A stretch of DNA of 64,000 nt from positions 1-64,000 of IMG/VR virus record IMGVR_UViG_3300035169_000077. One strand, written 5' to 3'. The DNA is from a virus. Positions 1 to 51,217 of the stretch are shown one piece after another. Under the pieces are notes generated by a model. It was not told the DNA's origin. It did no database searches and saw nothing but the letters and a program-made list of their open reading frames with translations. A program made the translations under genes and the position numbers. Position 1 is the first letter of the stretch; every line of letters starts with the position of its first letter.

Positions 1-98
1 GGACACGCCGGCGAGACGGGCGCCTGAGCATCACCGGAACTTACGTGTAAGCTCACTGCCAGCGGTACCACTGTCCCTCCGGCCGGACCTTCGCGGGG

Positions 99-431
99 GT
101 GGGCATGCTGGTCACCCGCGCGGACGGCCTCATCGACCGCGACCAGGCCGCCGAGCTCTGCGGGGTCTCCCCGGACGCGATCACCATCTGGGCAACCCGC
201 GGGTACGTCGTCACGCTCCCGGACGGCAAGAAGGAACGCCGCTTCCTGCCCGTCGCGCTGCGCGAGGGACGCTCCCCGTACTACGACCCGGTTGAGGTCG
301 CGAAGGCCGAGCGCGCCACCCGCAAGCGCGGAAGGCGCCCACCGCCGCGCCCTCTCCTGCGCAGCGCCAACACCGCCGGCATCGAGGCCAGCGGGATAGA
401 CCCCAGGCAACTCCGGGGGCGGGCGGCCTGA
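99..431 (+). CDS. MerR/excisionase-like HTH DNA-binding protein
   Basis: IDRDQAAELCGVSPDAITIWATRG HTH pattern; sits just upstream of the terminase genes. Confidence 0.65.
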   Translation: MGMLVTRADGLIDRDQAAELCGVSPDAITIWATRGYVVTLPDGKKERRFLPVALREGRSPYYDPVEVAKAERATRKRGRRPPPRPLLRSANTAGIEASGIDPRQLRGRAA

Positions 432-449
432 GCCGCTAGCCTCTGCCAC

Positions 450-638
450 ATGACCACCCCGGCCGACCCGCCGCCCGGCAAGTCAATCGTGTCGTCCTGC
501 GCGGCCTGCGGGCGTCCCAAGGTCAGCGTCCACTGCATGGCGCTCGCCTGCACCTGGGCACGCTGCGACACCTGCCACGCCATCACCGGCACCGTGCGAG
601 GCCAGCCCCACGCGATGGGGACGCCGTTCCCCGCGTGA
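450..638 (+). CDS. small Cys-rich (zinc-ribbon-like) protein
   Basis: CAAC...C..LAC...CDTC; TAGCCT -10 box 7 nt before the ATG (leaderless). Confidence 0.5.
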   Translation: MTTPADPPPGKSIVSSCAACGRPKVSVHCMALACTWARCDTCHAITGTVRGQPHAMGTPFPA

Positions 639-671
639 CCCTCATGGAAACGGCGGCGGGAGGCGACCCTC

Positions 672-1274
672 ATGGATGAGGACAAGCCGAAGTGCGCCGG
701 GATGTCCAAGCAGACCGGCAAGCGCTGCAAGCGAGACCCGGCGATCGGCCTGGACAAGTGCGCCATCCACTGCGGGCTGTCGAAGGCCGAGCGCGACCGG
801 ATCGCCGCCGAGTACCTCGCCATGCAAGAGGCCCGCAGGGCCGTCATCACGTACGGGCTACCCCGGGACATCTCGCCCGGCGACGCCCTGCTTGAGGAAG
901 TGCGCTACACGGCCGGCCACGTCGCGTGGCTGCGCGAGCGGATCCGGGAGCTTGAGGACCGCGACCTAATCTGGGGCGTGACGGAGCAGGTTGAGAAGAA
1001 CGCCACCGAGTTCGAGGGCACCGACACGACCGAGGCCGCCAAGCCGAACGTGTGGCTTGACCTGTACTACCGGGAGCGCAAGCACCTAGTCGACGTCGCC
1101 AAGGCTGCCATCGCCGCCGGGATCGAGGAGCGCAAGGTTCGGCTCGCCGAGCAGCAGGGCGCGCTCGTCGCCATGGTGATCCGCGGAATCCTCGCTGACC
1201 TGAAGCTGACCCCGGACCAGCGGGAACTCGTCGCCGAGGTGGTGCCGCGCCGCCTCCGGGCGCTCGCGGGCTAG
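672..1274 (+). CDS. terS: terminase small subunit
   Basis: N-terminal C..K.TG.RC...C..H.G zinc motif, helical body, GGGAGG RBS, directly upstream of TerL. Confidence 0.75.
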   Translation: MDEDKPKCAGMSKQTGKRCKRDPAIGLDKCAIHCGLSKAERDRIAAEYLAMQEARRAVITYGLPRDISPGDALLEEVRYTAGHVAWLRERIRELEDRDLIWGVTEQVEKNATEFEGTDTTEAAKPNVWLDLYYRERKHLVDVAKAAIAAGIEERKVRLAEQQGALVAMVIRGILADLKLTPDQRELVAEVVPRRLRALAG

Positions 1275-1289
1275 CAGGGGAGGGCGGCT

Positions 1290-3677
1290 GTGGCCGCCGA
1301 CACGGAGTGGGTTGAGTACGCGGCCCGCGAGTTCGAGGTTGTGCAGCCGCCGGAGTGGCGCGAGATCGCCCGGCCGGAGCAGCTGCCCCCGGATGGCAAG
1401 TGGCTGACGTGGGCGTTCATCGCCGGGCGCGGCGCGGGCAAGACGCGCTCCGCGGCCGAGTGGGCGCATGCACGGGCGATGGAAAACCCTGGCTGCCGGA
1501 TCGCCCTCGTTGGCCGTACCCCGGCCGACGTGCGCGATGTCATGATCGAGGGCGAGTCGGGGATCCTCGCGATCGCGGGCGGCGACAAGCCCGTCTACCA
1601 GTCGACCAAGCGGCGGCTGACGTGGCCGAACGGGTCGATGGCTTATGCCTATTCTGCCGAGGTCCCCCCGCAGCTGCGAGGCCCCCAGCACCACTACGCC
1701 TGGGCTGACGAGGCCGCCAGCTGGACGGACGCCCGCAAGGGCGACGTGCTGGACACGGCGTGGAACAACCTCATGCTCGGCCTGCGGCTCGGCGCTGACC
1801 CGCGGTGCGTGGTCACGACGACGCCGAAGCCGAACGCGCTCACCAAGACGATCCTCGGCCGGAAGTCGACCGTCGTCACCAAGGGCACGACGTACGACAA
1901 CCTGGCGAACCTGGCCCCGTCGTTCCGCGAGGAAGTCCTCGCCGCCTACGAGGGCACCCGCATCGGCCGGCAGGAACTGCTCGGCGAGATGCTCGAAGAC
2001 GTCGAGGGCGCGCTGTGGACGCTCGCGCTGATCGACCAGGCCAGGGTCAAGGGCCACCCGGACCTGGCCCGCGTCGTCGTCGCGGTCGACCCCTCCGGCG
2101 GCGAAGGCCCGGACTCTGACGAGCAGGGCATCATCGTGGCAGGCCTCGGGGTCGACGCCGAGGTGTACATCCTGGCGGACAGGTCATGCAAGCTGTCCCC
2201 GCACGGCTGGGCGTCGCGGGCCGTGGCCGCTTACCGGGAGTTCGCCGCTGACCGGATCGTCGCCGAGGTGAACTACGGCGGCGCGATGGTGGCGTCAACG
2301 ATCGGGATGGCCGACTCCGCAGTTCCGGTGAAGGTGATCACCGCCTCGCGGGGAAAGGTGCAGCGGGCCGAGCCGGTCTCCCTGGCATACGAGCAGGGCC
2401 GCGTGCACCATGTCGGGCCGCTGGCCAAGCTCGAAGACCAGATGACCACCTGGACCCCGCTGGACGGGACGAGTCCAGACCGGCTGGACGCCTGCATCGC
2501 AGCCGGGACGCCAGTGCTCACGGCGCGCGGCGAGGTGCCGATTGAGGATGTCGTAACCGGAGACCTGGCGTGGACGCGCCAGGGCTGGAAGCCGGTCACG
2601 GCGGCTAGGCGCACCCGCAGGGACGCTGAGGTACTGACGGCCGTGCTGTCGTCCGGCAGGACACTGACGGCCACCCCGGACCACCGGGTATGGGTTGAGG
2701 GCATCGGCTGGACCCGGATGGATGCCCTCGTGTGGGCTGATAGACTTTCAGGGTGGAAGAATCCCCGGTCGCAGTCACCTACAGAGGCGTCACGTACAAG
2801 CGCAACCCCAGCGCTAAGCAGCGTGCCCACCGGGTCTACTACAACGCACCGAGAGGCAGCGGGCGCAGTTCGCTGCACCGTGACACCTGGCGCGACAACC
2901 ACCCCGGCGAGGACATCCCCGCAGGCTGGCACGTCCACCACAAGGACCACGACCCGTTCAACAACGACCCCGGCAACCTCGTCCTCCGGTCACCCAAGGG
3001 CCATGCCGCCGAGCACCCCGAAGTCGCCGGGATGCCAGCCGATCACCTCGCCGCCATACGCCCCCTCGCCGCCGACTGGCACGCAAGCGCCGAGGGCCGC
3101 GAGTGGCACGCCGAGCACGGCAAGCGCACCTGGGAAGACCGCGAGCCCGTGGCCCGCAAGGCATGCGGCCAGTGCGGCGAGCAGTTCGACGCGTGGTTCG
3201 ACCGGGCCGAGTACTGCTCTCGCACCTGCATCAACCGCGCCACTGAGCACAGGCTCCGCCGCAGTGCCGTCTGCGTCATCTGCGGATCGGAGTACGAGCA
3301 GGACCGCAAGGCCCGAGGTCAGACCTGCTCCCGCAAGTGTGGCGCGGCTCTGCGCAAGCAGCGAGCGGCGTGACGTCTACGACCTGACGGTGGCCGATGC
3401 CCATGAGTTCGTCGCGGCCGGGGTCATCGTCCACAACTGCGTCTGGGCGATCACCGAATTGACCGGGAACTTCGGAGCGGACGCCTGGCTGGCATGGGGG
3501 CGACGCAAGGCGCAGGAAGCCGCTGCGGCGCGAGGTGAAGCCCCCGCCCCCGCTCCTCGCCCGCCAGTGGCCCAGCCCGAGGCACCCCCCGAGCCGGAGC
3601 ATGTCCCGTTGGACCCGGTGACGGCACGGAAGCTGGCAAGGGACGCGGCGTTCAGGTCATCAGGTAACGGACGGTAG
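1290..3677 (+). CDS. terL: terminase large subunit, intein-containing (about 480 aa after splicing)
   Basis: Walker A AGRGAGKT, LRGPQ, Walker B WADE, TTTP coupling motif; nuclease VAVDPS, AEVNYGG, DRLDA/CVWAITEL. Confidence 0.95.
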   Translation: MAADTEWVEYAAREFEVVQPPEWREIARPEQLPPDGKWLTWAFIAGRGAGKTRSAAEWAHARAMENPGCRIALVGRTPADVRDVMIEGESGILAIAGGDKPVYQSTKRRLTWPNGSMAYAYSAEVPPQLRGPQHHYAWADEAASWTDARKGDVLDTAWNNLMLGLRLGADPRCVVTTTPKPNALTKTILGRKSTVVTKGTTYDNLANLAPSFREEVLAAYEGTRIGRQELLGEMLEDVEGALWTLALIDQARVKGHPDLARVVVAVDPSGGEGPDSDEQGIIVAGLGVDAEVYILADRSCKLSPHGWASRAVAAYREFAADRIVAEVNYGGAMVASTIGMADSAVPVKVITASRGKVQRAEPVSLAYEQGRVHHVGPLAKLEDQMTTWTPLDGTSPDRLDACIAAGTPVLTARGEVPIEDVVTGDLAWTRQGWKPVTAARRTRRDAEVLTAVLSSGRTLTATPDHRVWVEGIGWTRMDALVWADRLSGWKNPRSQSPTEASRTSATPALSSVPTGSTTTHREAAGAVRCTVTPGATTTPARTSPQAGTSTTRTTTRSTTTPATSSSGHPRAMPPSTPKSPGCQPITSPPYAPSPPTGTQAPRAASGTPSTASAPGKTASPWPARHAASAASSSTRGSTGPSTALAPASTAPLSTGSAAVPSASSADRSTSRTARPEVRPAPASVARLCASSERRDVYDLTVADAHEFVAAGVIVHNCVWAITELTGNFGADAWLAWGRRKAQEAAAARGEAPAPAPRPPVAQPEAPPEPEHVPLDPVTARKLARDAAFRSSGNGR
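2738..2752 (+). promoter_or_regulatory. internal extended -10 promoter for a leaderless HNH mRNA
   Basis: TGA-TAGACT followed by 6 nt and then GTG 2753. Confidence 0.65.
2753..3373 (+). CDS. HNH homing endonuclease with C-terminal zinc fingers, nested out of frame inside the intein
   Basis: LHRDTW...IPAGWHVHHKDHDPFNNDPGNL...H...H; CGQCG...YCSRTC and CVICG...TCSRKC; own GTG start and TGA stop. Confidence 0.9.
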   Translation: MEESPVAVTYRGVTYKRNPSAKQRAHRVYYNAPRGSGRSSLHRDTWRDNHPGEDIPAGWHVHHKDHDPFNNDPGNLVLRSPKGHAAEHPEVAGMPADHLAAIRPLAADWHASAEGREWHAEHGKRTWEDREPVARKACGQCGEQFDAWFDRAEYCSRTCINRATEHRLRRSAVCVICGSEYEQDRKARGQTCSRKCGAALRKQRAA

Positions 3678-3750
3678 CCGGAGACCGGCGCTGGTGCCAG
3701 GATTCGCGGGCTGAGACCCCAACACTGGCCGGTAACTTCACTGAGCGTGC

Positions 3751-3954
3751 TCACCGCCTGATCCTCCGGTCCCGCTCCCGCTCCGTCACGAGCTCCACCT
3801 GAGCGACCGGCTCCCCGTCGCCGAGCCACCACGTGACGCCCCAGGCGATCATCGGCTCCGCGCGGGGGAAGACAACCGCGTCGCCCGCTCGCGGCACCGC
3901 GTCAAGGTCGAACCCCCCGAGGCTGGCCACGCCGCGCCTGAACTCGACTCTCAC
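3751..3954 (-). CDS. hypothetical antisense moron
   Basis: Start re-picked at GTG 3954, 6 nt after TGG-GATCAT. Confidence 0.55.
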   Translation of the reverse strand: MRVEFRRGVASLGGFDLDAVPRAGDAVVFPRAEPMIAWGVTWWLGDGEPVAQVELVTERERDRRIRR

Positions 3955-3984
3955 CCGCCCATGATCCCATCCGAGAGGGGAGCC

Positions 3985-4254
3985 GTGGCAGACGCCGAGG
4001 CGACGCCGGTCTTCGAGTTCAGCGGCACCTGGCCCTTCAACGGCCAGGTGAAGATCGGCGGGCACCCCGTCTCCTCCGTCACCTCGTTTCACGTCGATGC
4101 GCTCGCTGACGGCATCCCGGTAGTCACCCTGACCCTCGTCGGCCCCGGCGCCCTCCGCCTCCTCCTCGCGGCGGGGGCGGCTGACGTGCGGATCCCGGAC
4201 GAGACCCGCCAGGCGCTGACGGCCCTCGGCTGGACGCCGCCGTCAGGTCCGTAA
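3985..4254 (+). CDS. hypothetical protein
   Basis: GAGGGGAG RBS before GTG; typical codon usage. Confidence 0.6.
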   Translation: MADAEATPVFEFSGTWPFNGQVKIGGHPVSSVTSFHVDALADGIPVVTLTLVGPGALRLLLAAGAADVRIPDETRQALTALGWTPPSGP

Positions 4255-4274
4255 CCGAGGAGGGCGACTGTTAG

Positions 4275-7200
4275 ATGAGCGTCGCCTCCCGCATCGCCGC
4301 CCCGGACGTGACGGTGGCGAAGACCTACGGGACCTCCGTCCCCCCGCAGATCACGGCGGCCGAGGAACGGTCCCAGATGACCCCGGCATCGCCGTTCAGC
4401 CCCGGCGAGCCGATCGGGCCGTACGACGGGTTTAGCCGCACGCCGCGCTCCCATGAGTTCGTCACCAGCGTCAACACCTCATCGCGGCCGAGGTCCCATG
4501 AGCGCGTCTCCTTCGAGACCCTCAAGGGCCTGATCCGCTCCTACGACGTGGCTCAGTTGTGCATCCGCCACCGCATCGCGTCCCTGCGGTCCCTGGACTG
4601 GAAGCTGATCGCCGCCGACGCGCACGATGGCGATGTCGCCAGCGCGATCGAAACGGGCATGGCCGCGCTGAAGCGCCCCGACCGCAAGACCCTGTTCAAG
4701 CCGTGGCTGGCCAAGTATTTGAGGGGCATCCTGTCCTTCGACGCCGGCACCCTGTACCGGATGCGGAACCGCGGCGGCCGGGTCGTCGGCCTCAAGGTCA
4801 TCGACGGCACCACCATCGCCCCGCTCATCGACTACTGGGGCGACTCCCCGGAGGCGGAAGCCCCCGCCTACGTCCAATACGTGAATGGATTGCCGTGGAA
4901 CTGGCTTACCCGCGATGACCTGATCTACGAGCCGTACGACCCGCAGGACGACTCAATCTACGGGCGGGCGCCGCTTGAGGACATCCTCCTCAACGCCAAT
5001 ACGGATATCCGATTTCAGCTGTACTTTTTGCAGCGCTTTACCGAGGGAAACCTCCCGCACGCTTTCGCGTCTGCCCCGGAAACCTGGACTCCCGATCAGA
5101 TCGAGCAATTCCAGGAGTACTGGGATGGCTTCATGCTGGGCGACCAGAGCCGGAAGCACCAGATTAGGTGGGTGCCCGGGGGCAGTTCCTTTGCATGGTC
5201 GGATGAGAAGGAATTCACCGACAATTTCTCGCTATTCTTGATGCGAAAGACCTGCGCAGCCTATAGCGTAGTCCCTTCGGACCTGGGCTTTACGGAGTCG
5301 GTCAACCGCTCCTCGGGCGAATCACAGGCTGACGTTCAGCACCGCGTAGGGGACCTCCCGCTCGCCCATCACGTAATGGACATCCTGTCGGCATTCCTCC
5401 AGGATGACCTCGGGCTGCCGCTGAAGTTCATCTTCGACCTCGGCGAGGAGCAGGACGACCGCGTCGACCAGGCGCAGGCAGACGACATCTACATGAAGAT
5501 GGGCGTCATCGGCCCCAGCGACATCCGGGAGATGCGCTACGGCCTGGCCGAGCCGGAGGGCAAGCCGGTACCGCGGTTCATCTACACGGAGCGCTCCGGC
5601 CCGATCCCGCTGTCGTCGCTGTTCGCGGTGGCCGGGGAGATCGACCCCGCGACCGCCGCCCCGCTCCCGGATGCCCCGCTGTCACGCGAGGTGTTCGGCG
5701 GCACAGAGGGCGTCCTGCCGAACCCGCCGATCCACGTGATGTCCCTGGCCGAGCAGATGTACGGCGAGTCCGCGATGCCCCCCGCGCCGCCGCCGCAGCC
5801 GGTCATGCAGCCGTCCGACGCGACAGGCGCCCCCGTGGCCAAGGAAGGCGAAGCCGCCGCCGCTGCGGGGATCACGGCCGAGACCGGGCTGTACAGTTAC
5901 GACCTCGTCCGCGCCCTTGACGATGACGAGGACTCCGACGCCGCATCGGTGGCCAAGGAGATGCGGGCGTTCCGCAACTTCGAGAAGGCACGGCGCAAGG
6001 CCGGCGAGTGGCGCGACTTTGAGTTCCGGGCCATCGGCCGGACGCGCGGCCACAACCTAAACGACTCCGGTCGGCTGGCCGTCCGCAAGGAAGCCGGGCA
6101 AGTCGCGGTCGCGGGCCTCGCAGTCCTCGCCGCGGACACGGGCCGGGTGCTGATGCTCCAGCGCGCCCTCGTTGACGACGACCCCGCGGCGGGCACCTGG
6201 GAATTCCCGGGAGGCCACCTTGAGGGCGACGAGTCGCCTCTCGCCGCAGCCTGGCGCGAATGGCAGGAGGAAACAGGCTCCGCCTGCGCCCCCGGCGTGC
6301 AGACCGGTTCGTGGACGTCCGGGATCTACCAGGGCATCGTGTGGACGATCGAGCGCGAGGCTATGGTCCCCGTGCGCTCGGACAGCGTGATCACGAACCC
6401 GGACGACCCAGACTCTGACCAGGTCGAGGCAATCGCATGGTGGGACCCGGAGACGCTGCCCGGCAACCCGGTAGTGCGCCCCGAGCTGCTCGCCGCGATC
6501 GACGACGTGATGACCGCGCTCGGCTGCACCGACGCTGAGCCGACGCAAGGCGATGAGTCAACCTGCCCGTGCGGGACGCCTGTCGTGTACGACGAGATGA
6601 ACGGCTGGCAGCACGCTGACGGGTCCGTCTCGCACGACAACGGCGAGTCGGTAAGCGACAAGATGGCGGGCATAGCCAAGGCGGCTGATGCTCGCCCAAA
6701 AGGCTGGCCCGGCTGGAAGCTTGACCTCCGGGCCGCTAGCTACTGGCAGCCGTTCGTCACCGCCTCGGCGCAGCAGTCGCTGACCCGGGACAAGCTGAAC
6801 GAGATCGGGACCGCGTACATCGCGGCCAATCCTGGCCAGGACGGCACTGCACCCGGGAAGCGGGACCGGAACGCCGCCGCCCTGGCCTGGCTGACAGCCC
6901 GGGGCGTCACCGTCCCGATGGGCGAGGTTGCTGAGGGGATCGCCACTGACGCGGCGATGATCGGCGGGGCCTCCGCGCAGGCCGCGGTGAACGGTGACGA
7001 CACGGCGGACACCGGGGACTGGGAGCCGGGCGACCCCGTCACGGCGCGGCAGGTCGCCGAGGGCCTGGGCGTCGCTGCGGTGCTGGCACTGATGCCCGGC
7101 GGTGACGGCTCAGGCTCCGGCGGCGGGGCTGCGGGCACTGTCGCCGGGGACATGGAAGACGGGTACCTGAACGTCGTCGCCCGGGTCCTCGCCGGGTGGG

Positions 7201-7520
7201 ACCCGGACGTGGCGGCCGAAGAGCTGACAGGCATGCTCTCGGACGCGGTCGCGGACGGGGCCTATGCCGAGGGCCTGACCGTCACGCAGATCACGACGGT
7301 CTCCGGCGATGCCGCCATGGACTACTACCTGGCCAACTCGCTGTCGGAGCTTCAGTGGCTGGTGGATGACTCGCCGAATGTGTGCCCGGTTTGCCTGGCG
7401 AACGAGCGGGCCGGGCCTATCCCGGCCCGGACGGCATGGCCCTCAGGTGCGCAGAACGTGCCGCAGCATCCAAGGTGCCGGTGCTCGATCGTGCCGGCCT
7501 GGTTCCTTACTGGCGGCTAG
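4275..7520 (+). CDS. portal protein fused to a NUDIX hydrolase and a MuF-like head morphogenesis domain
   Basis: Portal motifs (IDGTTI.P, IYGRAPLE, AYSVVPSDLGF); NUDIX box GTWEFPGGHLEGDESPLAAAWREWQEETG; C-terminal CPVC...PQHPRCRC. Confidence 0.9.
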   Translation: MSVASRIAAPDVTVAKTYGTSVPPQITAAEERSQMTPASPFSPGEPIGPYDGFSRTPRSHEFVTSVNTSSRPRSHERVSFETLKGLIRSYDVAQLCIRHRIASLRSLDWKLIAADAHDGDVASAIETGMAALKRPDRKTLFKPWLAKYLRGILSFDAGTLYRMRNRGGRVVGLKVIDGTTIAPLIDYWGDSPEAEAPAYVQYVNGLPWNWLTRDDLIYEPYDPQDDSIYGRAPLEDILLNANTDIRFQLYFLQRFTEGNLPHAFASAPETWTPDQIEQFQEYWDGFMLGDQSRKHQIRWVPGGSSFAWSDEKEFTDNFSLFLMRKTCAAYSVVPSDLGFTESVNRSSGESQADVQHRVGDLPLAHHVMDILSAFLQDDLGLPLKFIFDLGEEQDDRVDQAQADDIYMKMGVIGPSDIREMRYGLAEPEGKPVPRFIYTERSGPIPLSSLFAVAGEIDPATAAPLPDAPLSREVFGGTEGVLPNPPIHVMSLAEQMYGESAMPPAPPPQPVMQPSDATGAPVAKEGEAAAAAGITAETGLYSYDLVRALDDDEDSDAASVAKEMRAFRNFEKARRKAGEWRDFEFRAIGRTRGHNLNDSGRLAVRKEAGQVAVAGLAVLAADTGRVLMLQRALVDDDPAAGTWEFPGGHLEGDESPLAAAWREWQEETGSACAPGVQTGSWTSGIYQGIVWTIEREAMVPVRSDSVITNPDDPDSDQVEAIAWWDPETLPGNPVVRPELLAAIDDVMTALGCTDAEPTQGDESTCPCGTPVVYDEMNGWQHADGSVSHDNGESVSDKMAGIAKAADARPKGWPGWKLDLRAASYWQPFVTASAQQSLTRDKLNEIGTAYIAANPGQDGTAPGKRDRNAAALAWLTARGVTVPMGEVAEGIATDAAMIGGASAQAAVNGDDTADTGDWEPGDPVTARQVAEGLGVAAVLALMPGGDGSGSGGGAAGTVAGDMEDGYLNVVARVLAGWDPDVAAEELTGMLSDAVADGAYAEGLTVTQITTVSGDAAMDYYLANSLSELQWLVDDSPNVCPVCLANERAGPIPARTAWPSGAQNVPQHPRCRCSIVPAWFLTGG

Positions 7521-8038
7521 CCGCCGAGCCCGGCGAGCATCCCGGTTGACAGCGCGCCGTGAACGACCAGCAGCTTCTTCGCCCCGGGCTTGCCTGGTGC
7601 CCCCGGCACGTGCTCGGCGCAGACCAGCGTCCCGCCGACCATCGTGATACCGGGCTGCGGCTGCGGCATCCCATCGGGCTGGCCCGGGCGCAGCGGCTCG
7701 GGCAGGAACGCCTCGGGTGCCTGCTGCATCGGGACGCCAAGCCTGGTGGCCTCCTCGGCGGCCTGCTGGTACCCCTCGGATGCGGCGGCCATCTCCGCCT
7801 CGTGCTTGTGCTCCCAGCCGAGCCGGGCGAGGACGCACGGGGCGCAAAGCTGGCGCGGGACCCGGACGGCCTGCCCGATCGCCATGGGGAGCTGGCCGAG
7901 CAGGGTTCCGAACGCCTGCGCCATCTGGGGCAGCATCCCGGCGATAGCGGAGACGCCGTCCGCAGTCTGCCGGGCGGGCGATGTGGGGCTGTTGCCGTTG
8001 AGCCCTGCCGGGGCCTGCGGTGAGGGTTCCTGGGTCAT
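7517..8038 (-). CDS. hypothetical antisense moron
   Basis: ATG 8038 lies 7 nt after GATAAT; CAPC...CAEH motif. Confidence 0.6.
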   Translation of the reverse strand: MTQEPSPQAPAGLNGNSPTSPARQTADGVSAIAGMLPQMAQAFGTLLGQLPMAIGQAVRVPRQLCAPCVLARLGWEHKHEAEMAAASEGYQQAAEEATRLGVPMQQAPEAFLPEPLRPGQPDGMPQPQPGITMVGGTLVCAEHVPGAPGKPGAKKLLVVHGALSTGMLAGLGG

Positions 8039-39864: not shown

Positions 39865-40112
39865 GCCAGGACGATCTCGCGCCCGCAGCAGATGGCGTGA
39901 TCTTGCAGCGGAAGCCGGCCGGAGCGCGTCGACCACCAGCCGCGCGGATGAGTGCCCGCCGTGAACTCGATCCCGCACGCCGCCACCCGCACTTCCCCGC
40001 GAAAGCCGCCGTCGAAGCGGCGCACGATCAGGTGAGCAGATGTCGGCAACGCGGGGCCACCCGGATACATGGGGCTGAGGCCCATCGCCCACAGGTTGGG
40101 ATCGTCGCTCAT
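39678..40112 (-). CDS. hypothetical antisense moron
   Basis: ATG lies 6 nt after TAGGCT. Confidence 0.5.
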   Translation of the reverse strand: MSDDPNLWAMGLSPMYPGGPALPTSAHLIVRRFDGGFRGEVRVAACGIEFTAGTHPRGWWSTRSGRLPLQDHAICCGREIVLAQAAGEGVPAATVISSDPSSASVNSHGGEASRTGDPSGATSHTAVLPDGVRSGPSSSGSGPQ

Positions 40113-50725: not shown

Positions 50726-51217
50726 GTGACCCCACCGCACCCCGACGTGCTCCGCATAGGCGAGAACGTCCGCATAGCCCGGGAGCGCAAGGGCCTGTCC
50801 CAGGCCGCGCTCGCCGAGGAGATGCGCGCCCGCGGCTTCACCGCATGGCAGCAGCCCGCCGTGTATAAGACCGAGAAGGGCGTCCGCGAGCCCAGCGGCC
50901 GGGAGATGGCAGCCCTCGCCGCGATCCTCGGCACCACGATTGAGCGGTTCTTCTGGCTCCAGGGGGAGGCCGCCGAGTCCGACGCCGCAGACGCCGCCAT
51001 CGTCGCCGTCCGCCAGTCATGGCAGGGCGCCTCCGACGCTGTCCTGCGCCTGGAGGCCGCGCTAGCCTCGGGTCGGCACCGGCTCGCGCAGGCGAAGGCC
51101 AGCAAGTACAAGCGGGTACGCGAGGTCGCCGGGGAGCTTGAGGCGGAACTCGGCGAGTCCACCCTGGAGGCCGCCGTAGGCGACGGCCTCGCCCGGCTCG
51201 AGGACGGGGACACCTGA
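50726..51217 (+). CDS. immunity repressor (XRE HTH)
   Basis: IGENVRIARERKGLSQAALA...W.QPAVYKTEKG.REP; divergent from cro and coupled to int. Confidence 0.85.
   Translation: MTPPHPDVLRIGENVRIARERKGLSQAALAEEMRARGFTAWQQPAVYKTEKGVREPSGREMAALAAILGTTIERFFWLQGEAAESDAADAAIVAVRQSWQGASDAVLRLEAALASGRHRLAQAKASKYKRVREVAGELEAELGESTLEAAVGDGLARLEDGDT

Follow-up and report, generated by a model that had tools for sequence, protein, structure and literature searches.

The window analysed here is a stretch of 64,000 nucleotides (nt), positions 1 to 64,000 of IMG/VR virus record IMGVR_UViG_3300035169_000077. Its gene for the large terminase subunit, terL, contains a class 1 intein, and the DNA between the two splicing domains of this intein also encodes a complete HNH homing endonuclease on the same strand in another reading frame. 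The layout is conserved in relatives, and selection acts on the HNH frame as well as against stop codons in the intein frame, which stays open from end to end. The locus as a whole is best explained as a terL intein with an overprinted HNH gene of the free-standing type, which would be separately expressed from its own signals; the probability given to this reading is roughly 0.78.

In the proposed mechanism, a class 1 intein would have invaded the terL of the window at a conserved motif of the nuclease domain. A homing endonuclease gene (HEG) of the free-standing type would fill the space between the splicing domains and keep its own start, stop, and expression signals. Ribosomes on terL would read the HNH DNA as a stop-free, unstructured linker of Ser, Thr, Pro, Ala, and Arg, and protein splicing would remove the whole intein to give mature TerL (...DRLDA-CVWAITEL...) with the predicted junction peptide DRLDACVWAITEL. 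In the window phage and in a mostly GC-rich subset of relatives, HNH is likely made from a leaderless mRNA that starts at the GTG at 2753, by way of the element TGaTAGACT, while most other relatives would use a -10-like element about 19-36 nt upstream of a Shine-Dalgarno site. The free nuclease would nick or cut intein-less terL alleles in co-infection, and repair would copy the intein and the nuclease gene together. The transcription start, translation, splicing, and cleavage in this scheme are predicted from the sequence. The open reading frames (ORFs) and other features are as follows, with protein lengths and positions in amino acids (aa).

1290-3677, plus strand: TerL precursor ORF (N-extein, intein, and C-extein), 795 aa; Terminase_6N at aa 43-247, Terminase_6C at aa 265-405, Hint_2, and Intein_splicing
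1290-2492, plus strand: TerL N-extein with the C-terminal end ...SPDRLDA (nuclease-domain motif), aligned to the intein-less TerL of Mae-JY09 and DSL-LC01
2493-3437, plus strand: class 1 intein of 315 aa, Cys1 to His-Asn, from TGC 2493 to AAC 3437; the +1 Cys is at 3438-3440
2493-2752, plus strand: N-terminal splicing domain of the intein (block A with Cys1, block B TPDH, end ...ALVWADRL), from the Hint_2 match at aa 402-488 and the alignment
2738-2746, plus strand: extended -10-like element TGaTAGACT, read in the sequence, with a putative promoter function
2753-3373, plus strand: HNH homing endonuclease ORF, 206 aa, GTG start and TGA stop, frame +2/-1 relative to TerL; HNH_3, pLDDT 95, relative of I-HmuI (1u3e)
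2876-3016, plus strand: HNH catalytic core, residues 42-88; H62, H63, N70, N71, N75, and H84 invariant and H88 nearly so in 66 sequences
3164-3229, plus strand: zinc ribbon 1 (C138, C141, C155, C159), invariant in the 66 sequences
3272-3340, plus strand: zinc ribbon 2 (C174, C177, C192, C196), at least 90% conserved in the 66 sequences
2754-3371, plus strand: read-through linker of the intein frame, about 207 aa, 77% S/T/P/A/R, stop-free and not conserved as protein
3372-3437, plus strand: C-terminal blocks F and G of the intein (DVYDLTVADAHEFVAAGVIVHN), Intein_splicing match at aa 685-716
3438-3677, plus strand: TerL C-extein (CVWAITEL...) and stop, from the ORF and the alignment

Anatomy of the intein and of the HNH gene

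With the intein left out, the joined exteins align without a gap to the intein-less TerL of Microcystis phage Mae-JY09 and Actinomycetia phage DSL-LC01, and the junction falls at SPDRLDA-(C/L)VW. The Cys nucleophile of a class 1 intein (TGC 2493) stands right after the N-extein. The blocks TPDH, VYDLTV...HEF, and VIVHN-C (the last hyphen marking the junction) are all found, and the Pfam matches to Hint_2 and Intein_splicing are above their cut-offs. ORF 1290-3677 is free of stops and thus comprises a single open frame across the whole intein. In the alignment, the insertion point is the same conserved nuclease-domain motif across very different TerL families, and blocks F and G are intact throughout the relatives. 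TerL is an essential protein. Together with the intact blocks, this suggests that the intein is removed by protein splicing.

The first-pass annotation, made from the sequence alone, had placed an out-of-frame HNH gene inside a terminase intein at 2493-3437 with all splicing blocks, and the ORFs, the Pfam matches, and the extein junction agree with it. It had also described about 200 aa of stop-free, low-complexity S/T/P/A/R sequence in the intein frame, which measures 207 aa with 77% of these residues, and a complete HNH domain with two zinc fingers at 2753-3373, where the HNH_3 match, the HNH residues, and two Cys4 zinc ribbons are conserved. At its 5' end the HNH gene has two stops in its own frame, TGA TAG (2738-2743), just before GTG 2753. 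At its 3' end the gene stops with TGA 3371-3373, which shares letters with CGT-GAC, the Arg-Asp codons just 5' of block F (VYDLTV), as had been claimed. The first-pass description of these features is correct on every point.

The 206-aa ORF matches Pfam family HNH_3 (PF13392) with E=6e-8, above the cut-off. No other Pfam family is found for it at E<=0.01, and it shows no Endonuclease_7 / IPR004211 membership. The AlphaFold2 model, built with the 66-sequence alignment, has a mean pLDDT of 95. The best solved relative is I-HmuI (PDB 1U3E), with a profile E of 7e-4 and a structural match by VIA-align of Z 7.1 and rmsd 3.1 A over 75 residues, well separated from the next-ranked match. A Foldseek search of the elongated multi-domain model against the PDB returns nothing at E<=0.001, and structure comparison finds no clear solved match for the C-terminal helical region and the two zinc ribbons. 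The catalytic His, the Asn, and the metal-binding His of the beta-beta-alpha-metal HNH motif are all present. Packaging-accessory HNH proteins of the HK97 gp74 or N.phiGamma type adjoin terminase genes, and the paper on them says nothing of intein-embedded nucleases (PMC3592412). The HNH_3/I-HmuI-like core of the window protein points to a homing enzyme, with a packaging role as the alternative considered.

Directly 5' of terL lies a 200-aa ORF (672-1274, plus strand) that ends 15 nt before it, in the usual position of the small terminase subunit.

Conservation of the layout and selection on the two frames

A pattern scan of IMG/VR finds at least 527 relatives of the HNH gene, and the layout was counted in the best 80 loci (GC 0.30-0.68). 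A long ORF spans HNH in 69 of these 80, and the offset of HNH to the long ORF is always +2. A tblastn search with the HNH sequence finds relatives of 31-35% identity inside the terL of Tetrasphaera phage TJE1, Acinetobacter phage Highwayman, and Clostridium phage phiCDHM19. Each of the three has a terL ORF of about 740-800 aa, with intein ends, that continues across the HNH ORF at the offset seen in the window. The same overprint occurs in 21 of 38 loci from genomes and metagenome-assembled genomes (MAGs) in one-genome-per-species data, with record titles that include Corynebacterium, Bacteroides, Prevotella, Clostridia, Allohahella, Planctomycetales, Kineosporiaceae, and several archaeal-labelled MAGs. 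A blastn search of the region against phage records gives no match.

The records of these loci hold some further observations. In TJE1, Highwayman, and phiCDHM19 (L001, L002, and L003), the annotated terL is one long coding sequence with no intein feature, and the HNH ORFs of 215-221 aa are unannotated. The contigs L093, L094, L097, L099, and L109, from Woesearchaeota, Thorarchaeota, Halobacteriales, and 'archaeon' MAGs, have an overprinted terL intein, and could be archaeal viruses or mis-binned phage contigs. The chromosome of Allohahella sp. A8 has two overprinted copies (L095 and L096, at about 750 kb and 803 kb) separated by about 52 kb, probably from two prophages or a duplication. Only two of the 38 genome and MAG loci have another offset, +1 to terL: L115:1599-3659 from a Vampirovibrio MAG and L117:605-2665 from a bacterial MAG. 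Their HNH is cut to one zinc ribbon and the catalytic HxHH stretch is altered (IIDHID), which may reflect decay.

Several properties of the window taken by itself weigh against the proposed reading. The window is a metagenome-derived contig. At 70% GC, 33% of shuffles of the HNH gene among synonymous codons still leave the second frame without stops, so for the window alone its openness is not statistically significant. The 315-aa intein in the TerL frame, folded as a single sequence without an alignment, has a mean pLDDT of 38, which is not evidence for a disordered linker.

The metagenomic source leaves room for assembly or sequencing indels that pushed a normal in-frame HNH intein out of frame. 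The same offset is nevertheless present in the 69 independent IMG/VR contigs, in three isolate genomes, and in the 21 genome and MAG loci. The HNH frame has its own start, near-upstream stops, and its own stop, there are no homopolymers longer than 3 nt at either frame boundary of the window, and an in-frame reading would terminate TerL at the HNH stop. The conservation data make the indel explanation untenable, and its likelihood is close to nil. By all indications from these loci, the overprint is not a sequencing artefact; it is a conserved out-of-frame HNH gene inside an intact TerL intein.

The GC content at third codon positions (GC3) in the window is 0.86 for the HNH frame and 0.68 for the intein frame over the overlap, with 0.91 for the N-extein. 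Six pairs of related loci have 88, 49, and 199 substitutions at HNH codon positions 1, 2, and 3 (two of the six pairs are the same phiCDHM19 comparison, and the counts without the duplicate are 82, 48, and 188). On the same nucleotides, the amino-acid identity is 0.92 in the HNH frame and 0.82 in the linker frame. The HNH frame is judged to be under purifying selection because of its GC3, the invariant residues, the pLDDT-95 model, and the third-position bias of the substitutions, and the intein frame, under relaxed selection, appears to be merely kept open. The same data bear on the alternative that HNH is a decaying relic, no longer expressed, within an intein that in effect survives as a mini-intein around a junk linker. 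Even though relatives such as L115 and L117 look degraded in length, catalytic motif, and offset, the window has all its catalytic and zinc residues intact in a confidently modelled fold, substitutions among relatives concentrate at HNH third positions, and GC3 tracks the HNH frame. A relic is thus improbable.

The openness of the intein frame is better judged across the family. For the two AT-rich cultured phages, only 0.025% of synonymous shuffles leave the second frame open. Intein-frame stops number zero in 61 of 61 embedded representatives, and the median is 5 in free-standing relatives, while the third frame has a median of 15-17. The contrast between embedded and free-standing forms indicates that selection keeps the intein frame open. 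The frame used for HNH follows from the same limit, since it leaves the only alternative frame of the gene that can be kept stop-free.

Candidate expression signals upstream of the HNH start

The first-pass annotation had proposed an extended -10 element (TGA-TAGACT) 6 nt before the HNH start, and the letters are as described: TG at 2738-2739 and TAGACT at 2741-2746, which end 6 nt 5' of GTG 2753 and also form the two tandem HNH-frame stops. No Shine-Dalgarno site is found before GTG 2753. In leaderless genes of actinobacteria, TANNNT usually stands about 7 nt before an ATG or GTG at the very 5' end of the transcript, and the window has this -10-only layout (TANNNT within about 6-8 nt of the start codon and no Shine-Dalgarno). 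The claim that the element forces rare codons on the intein also stands, as the TerL ORF has five A/T-ending codons in a row nowhere but in the TerL-frame spelling of the element, GCT GAT AGA CTT TCA, and 0.8% of the Arg codons in the window are AGA.

The upstream signals were surveyed in 71 representative loci with HNH identity below 80%. TAnnnT stands exactly 6 nt before the start in 15 of the 71, against 0.71 expected (about 20-fold), with none at 5 nt and one at 7 nt. A Shine-Dalgarno site is found in none of these 15 and in 39 of the other 56. A hexamer with at least 5/6 matches to TATAAT within 45 nt upstream is present in 37/71 loci, against 7.8 expected. The leaderless-type and leadered-type layouts do not overlap, and the window is of the leaderless type. 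Leaderless-type loci are mostly GC-rich and include the free-standing L007 and L031, which have the layout in intergenic DNA. This would make the -10 signal a part of the nuclease cassette rather than of the intein.

Within the window, TAnnnT-N6-(A/G)TG occurs eight times on the two strands, and five of these precede the first start codon of a codon-biased ORF. The other genes that begin 6 nt after TAnnnT without a leader are at 40112 (minus), 40679 (minus), 50726 (plus), and 63113 (plus). These four include an HTH_3/HTH_31 regulator (50726-51217) and a 71-aa protein with a weak sigma-70 region-4-like match.

The evidence on the other side of the leaderless reading is threefold. A generic two-hexamer sigma-70 promoter scan of positions 1-8000 of the window finds no promoter and no terminator; the scan requires a -35 hexamer, and extended -10 and actinobacterial promoters often have none. 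The first T, partly the TG, and the last T of the -10 element also derive from the Asp, Gly/Ala, and hydrophobic codons of a conserved intein motif. The signal is therefore partly imposed by the protein; this Gly/Ala-Asp-x-hydrophobic motif ends the N-domain of the intein. The independent genome and MAG set shows the 6-nt layout in a single locus of 30, a high-GC Kineosporiaceae (actinobacterial) one, which confines the leaderless claim to a subset and not the whole family.

The -10-like motif might then be a mere by-product of the Gly/Ala-Asp-x-hydrophobic motif, with HNH made at a low level by internal initiation on the terL mRNA. The hexamer overlaps Asp-x-hydrophobic codons in 12 of the 15 6-nt loci, which fits this explanation, as does the negative generic scan, and the Shine-Dalgarno sites of the leadered relatives could act on a long mRNA. 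In contrast, L007 and L031 have TAnnnT-6 nt-GTG without any intein context, and the spacing is sharply 6 nt. All 15 loci are without a Shine-Dalgarno site, and so would have no initiation signal on a long mRNA. The TATAAT of the leadered loci lies in varied amino-acid contexts (D-I-I, S-I-I, A-I-I, and Y-N), and the window site has five consecutive rare codons. A by-product is unlikely on this evidence. The leaderless promoter proposed in the first-pass annotation is thus supported by comparison for the window and for a mostly GC-rich subset, with letters that are in part those of the protein motif, and does not extend to the family as a whole.

Expression could also take place by programmed -1 ribosomal frameshifting, which would fuse the N-extein and the intein N-domain to HNH. 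In nearly all loci HNH does lie in the -1 frame of terL, and in a few GC-rich ones this frame is open far upstream (e.g., 270 nt in TJE1). However, the HNH N-terminus (Met-Glu...) aligns among homologs, and most loci have an HNH-frame stop 0-48 nt before this conserved Met/Val start; in the window, two tandem stops lie 9-15 nt upstream. The stop-to-start gap of the window contains no slippery heptamer, free-standing homologs begin at the same residue, and a Shine-Dalgarno site or a -10 element stands right at the HNH start. The conserved start and the upstream in-frame stops therefore indicate independent initiation and not frameshifting, which is very improbable. Separate expression of a free nuclease, as claimed at first, remains the preferred reading; the conserved start, the near-upstream stops, the free-standing homologs, and the two classes of upstream signal are all consistent with it.

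Origin and comparison with known systems

Free-standing HNH relatives lie directly downstream of an intein-less terL (L031, L048, and L063) or upstream of the small subunit gene terS (phage BP10). The free-standing members L031:2986-3630, L048:2977-3663, L063:2950-3564, and L004:2489-3127 always adjoin packaging genes, either with an intein-less terL on one side and the portal gene on the other, or immediately 5' of terS. The HNH gene always lies in or next to terL, and this bears on homing only indirectly. At L071:1450-3600 (IMG/VR contig 3300026088_000051), terL stops after the intein N-domain and is followed by HNH and then by a separate ORF with the intein C-blocks and the C-extein; the former linker frame has nine stops. 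The locus has the fractured-gene layout of Dassa et al. 2009, apparently with terL broken and its intein split. In a quick HNH tree with weak support, free-standing and embedded forms are interspersed, and the nearest neighbour of the window is the free-standing L007.

These forms may belong to one old and widespread lineage, with its 527 or more IMG/VR relatives in phages and prophages of Actinomycetota, Bacillota, Pseudomonadota, Bacteroidota, and Planctomycetota, and in some archaeal-binned contigs. Overprinting would then be a stable, selected state of intein and nuclease and not a passing accident. The nuclease gene would be an independent cassette with signals re-tuned per host (leaderless in GC-rich hosts, Shine-Dalgarno elsewhere), it would have moved repeatedly among the free-standing state next to terL, the split-intein state, and the overprinted state, and its frame would be fixed by which frame can stay stop-free. 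The evidence for and against this wider history is about evenly balanced.

How hidden out-of-frame homing endonucleases are made is a question raised before (PMC11855218, section 4.3), and broadly distributed examples of hidden nucleases are called few (bioRxiv 10.64898/2026.09.14.751524). The HNH family provides hundreds of natural replicates over a wide GC range and includes the cultured phages TJE1, phiCDHM19, and Highwayman, which makes the expression question testable. The answer proposed here is that the nuclease gene may bring its own -10 element together with a leaderless start or a Shine-Dalgarno site. A reason is also given for the use of one frame over the others, and a single nuclease family links free-standing HEGs, fractured genes with split inteins, and contiguous inteins. 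For annotation, the nuclease gene under terL is absent from the records of all three cultured phages examined.

The caution in the first-pass annotation that the architecture may already be published was justified, as it appears in Gorbalenya 1998 (as cited in later work), Gosselin et al. 2025, and Phillips et al. 2026. Out-of-frame intein endonucleases date back to the first of these, according to the citing literature. In the literature searched, no paper ties an intein to TJE1, phiCDHM19, phiCD119, or Highwayman.

Gosselin et al. 2025 describe contiguous inteins, many of them in TerL, with the nuclease between the splicing domains in 'reading frame 3', which is the offset of the window, and propose that they originate from a free-standing HEG that invades an intein. 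Their nuclease is a small T4 endonuclease VII-type protein (shorter, CxxC...DHDH-type) in an intein of about 795 nt, whereas the window has a 206-aa I-HmuI-like HNH_3 protein with two zinc ribbons in a 945-nt intein. A tblastn search with the window HNH matches no phage that the paper or its supplement names (Keitabear, Angelicage, Sedona, Affeca, and Nordenberg), and its only match with an actinobacterial host is Tetrasphaera phage TJE1. The survey of Gosselin et al. is confined to PhagesDB, and the text is without mention of promoters or ribosome binding.

The cyanobacterial DnaX intein (Gorbalenya 1998, as cited; Phillips et al., bioRxiv 10.64898/2026.09.14.751524) similarly has a homing endonuclease in an overlapping frame of a contiguous intein, with purifying selection on the endonuclease frame and relaxed selection on the intein frame. 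It differs in its cellular host gene, dnaX, and its LAGLIDADG nuclease, and comes with no analysis of expression signals.

Fractured genes (Dassa et al. 2009, PMC2677866) resemble the window in that the intein halves flank a HEG of the free-standing type that has its own regulatory region and overlaps the downstream intein part at its 3' end, and one case is in a phage terminase. However, the host gene and intein are in two ORFs and trans-splicing is needed, with HEGs that are GIY-YIG or Vsr-like. The intein frame of the window instead continues across the HEG, which would make the precursor one polypeptide.

The hidden HNH of ShiLan in a mycobacteriophage methylase (Arsenault et al. 2025, PMC11855218) is also out of frame, has a GTG start, and leaves the host ORF open, and leaderless initiation is raised there as a possible route. 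In contrast to the window, there is no intein, the insertion stays in the host protein, and no promoter evidence is given. I-HmuI (PDB 1U3E), the HNH nicking homing endonuclease of Bacillus phage SPO1, resembles the window protein in its catalytic half, but is encoded by a group I intron and has other DNA-binding modules. When compared to these systems, the architecture is already known, and what the window and its relatives add is the nuclease family, its breadth, the fixed frame with the reason for it, and the conserved candidate expression signals.

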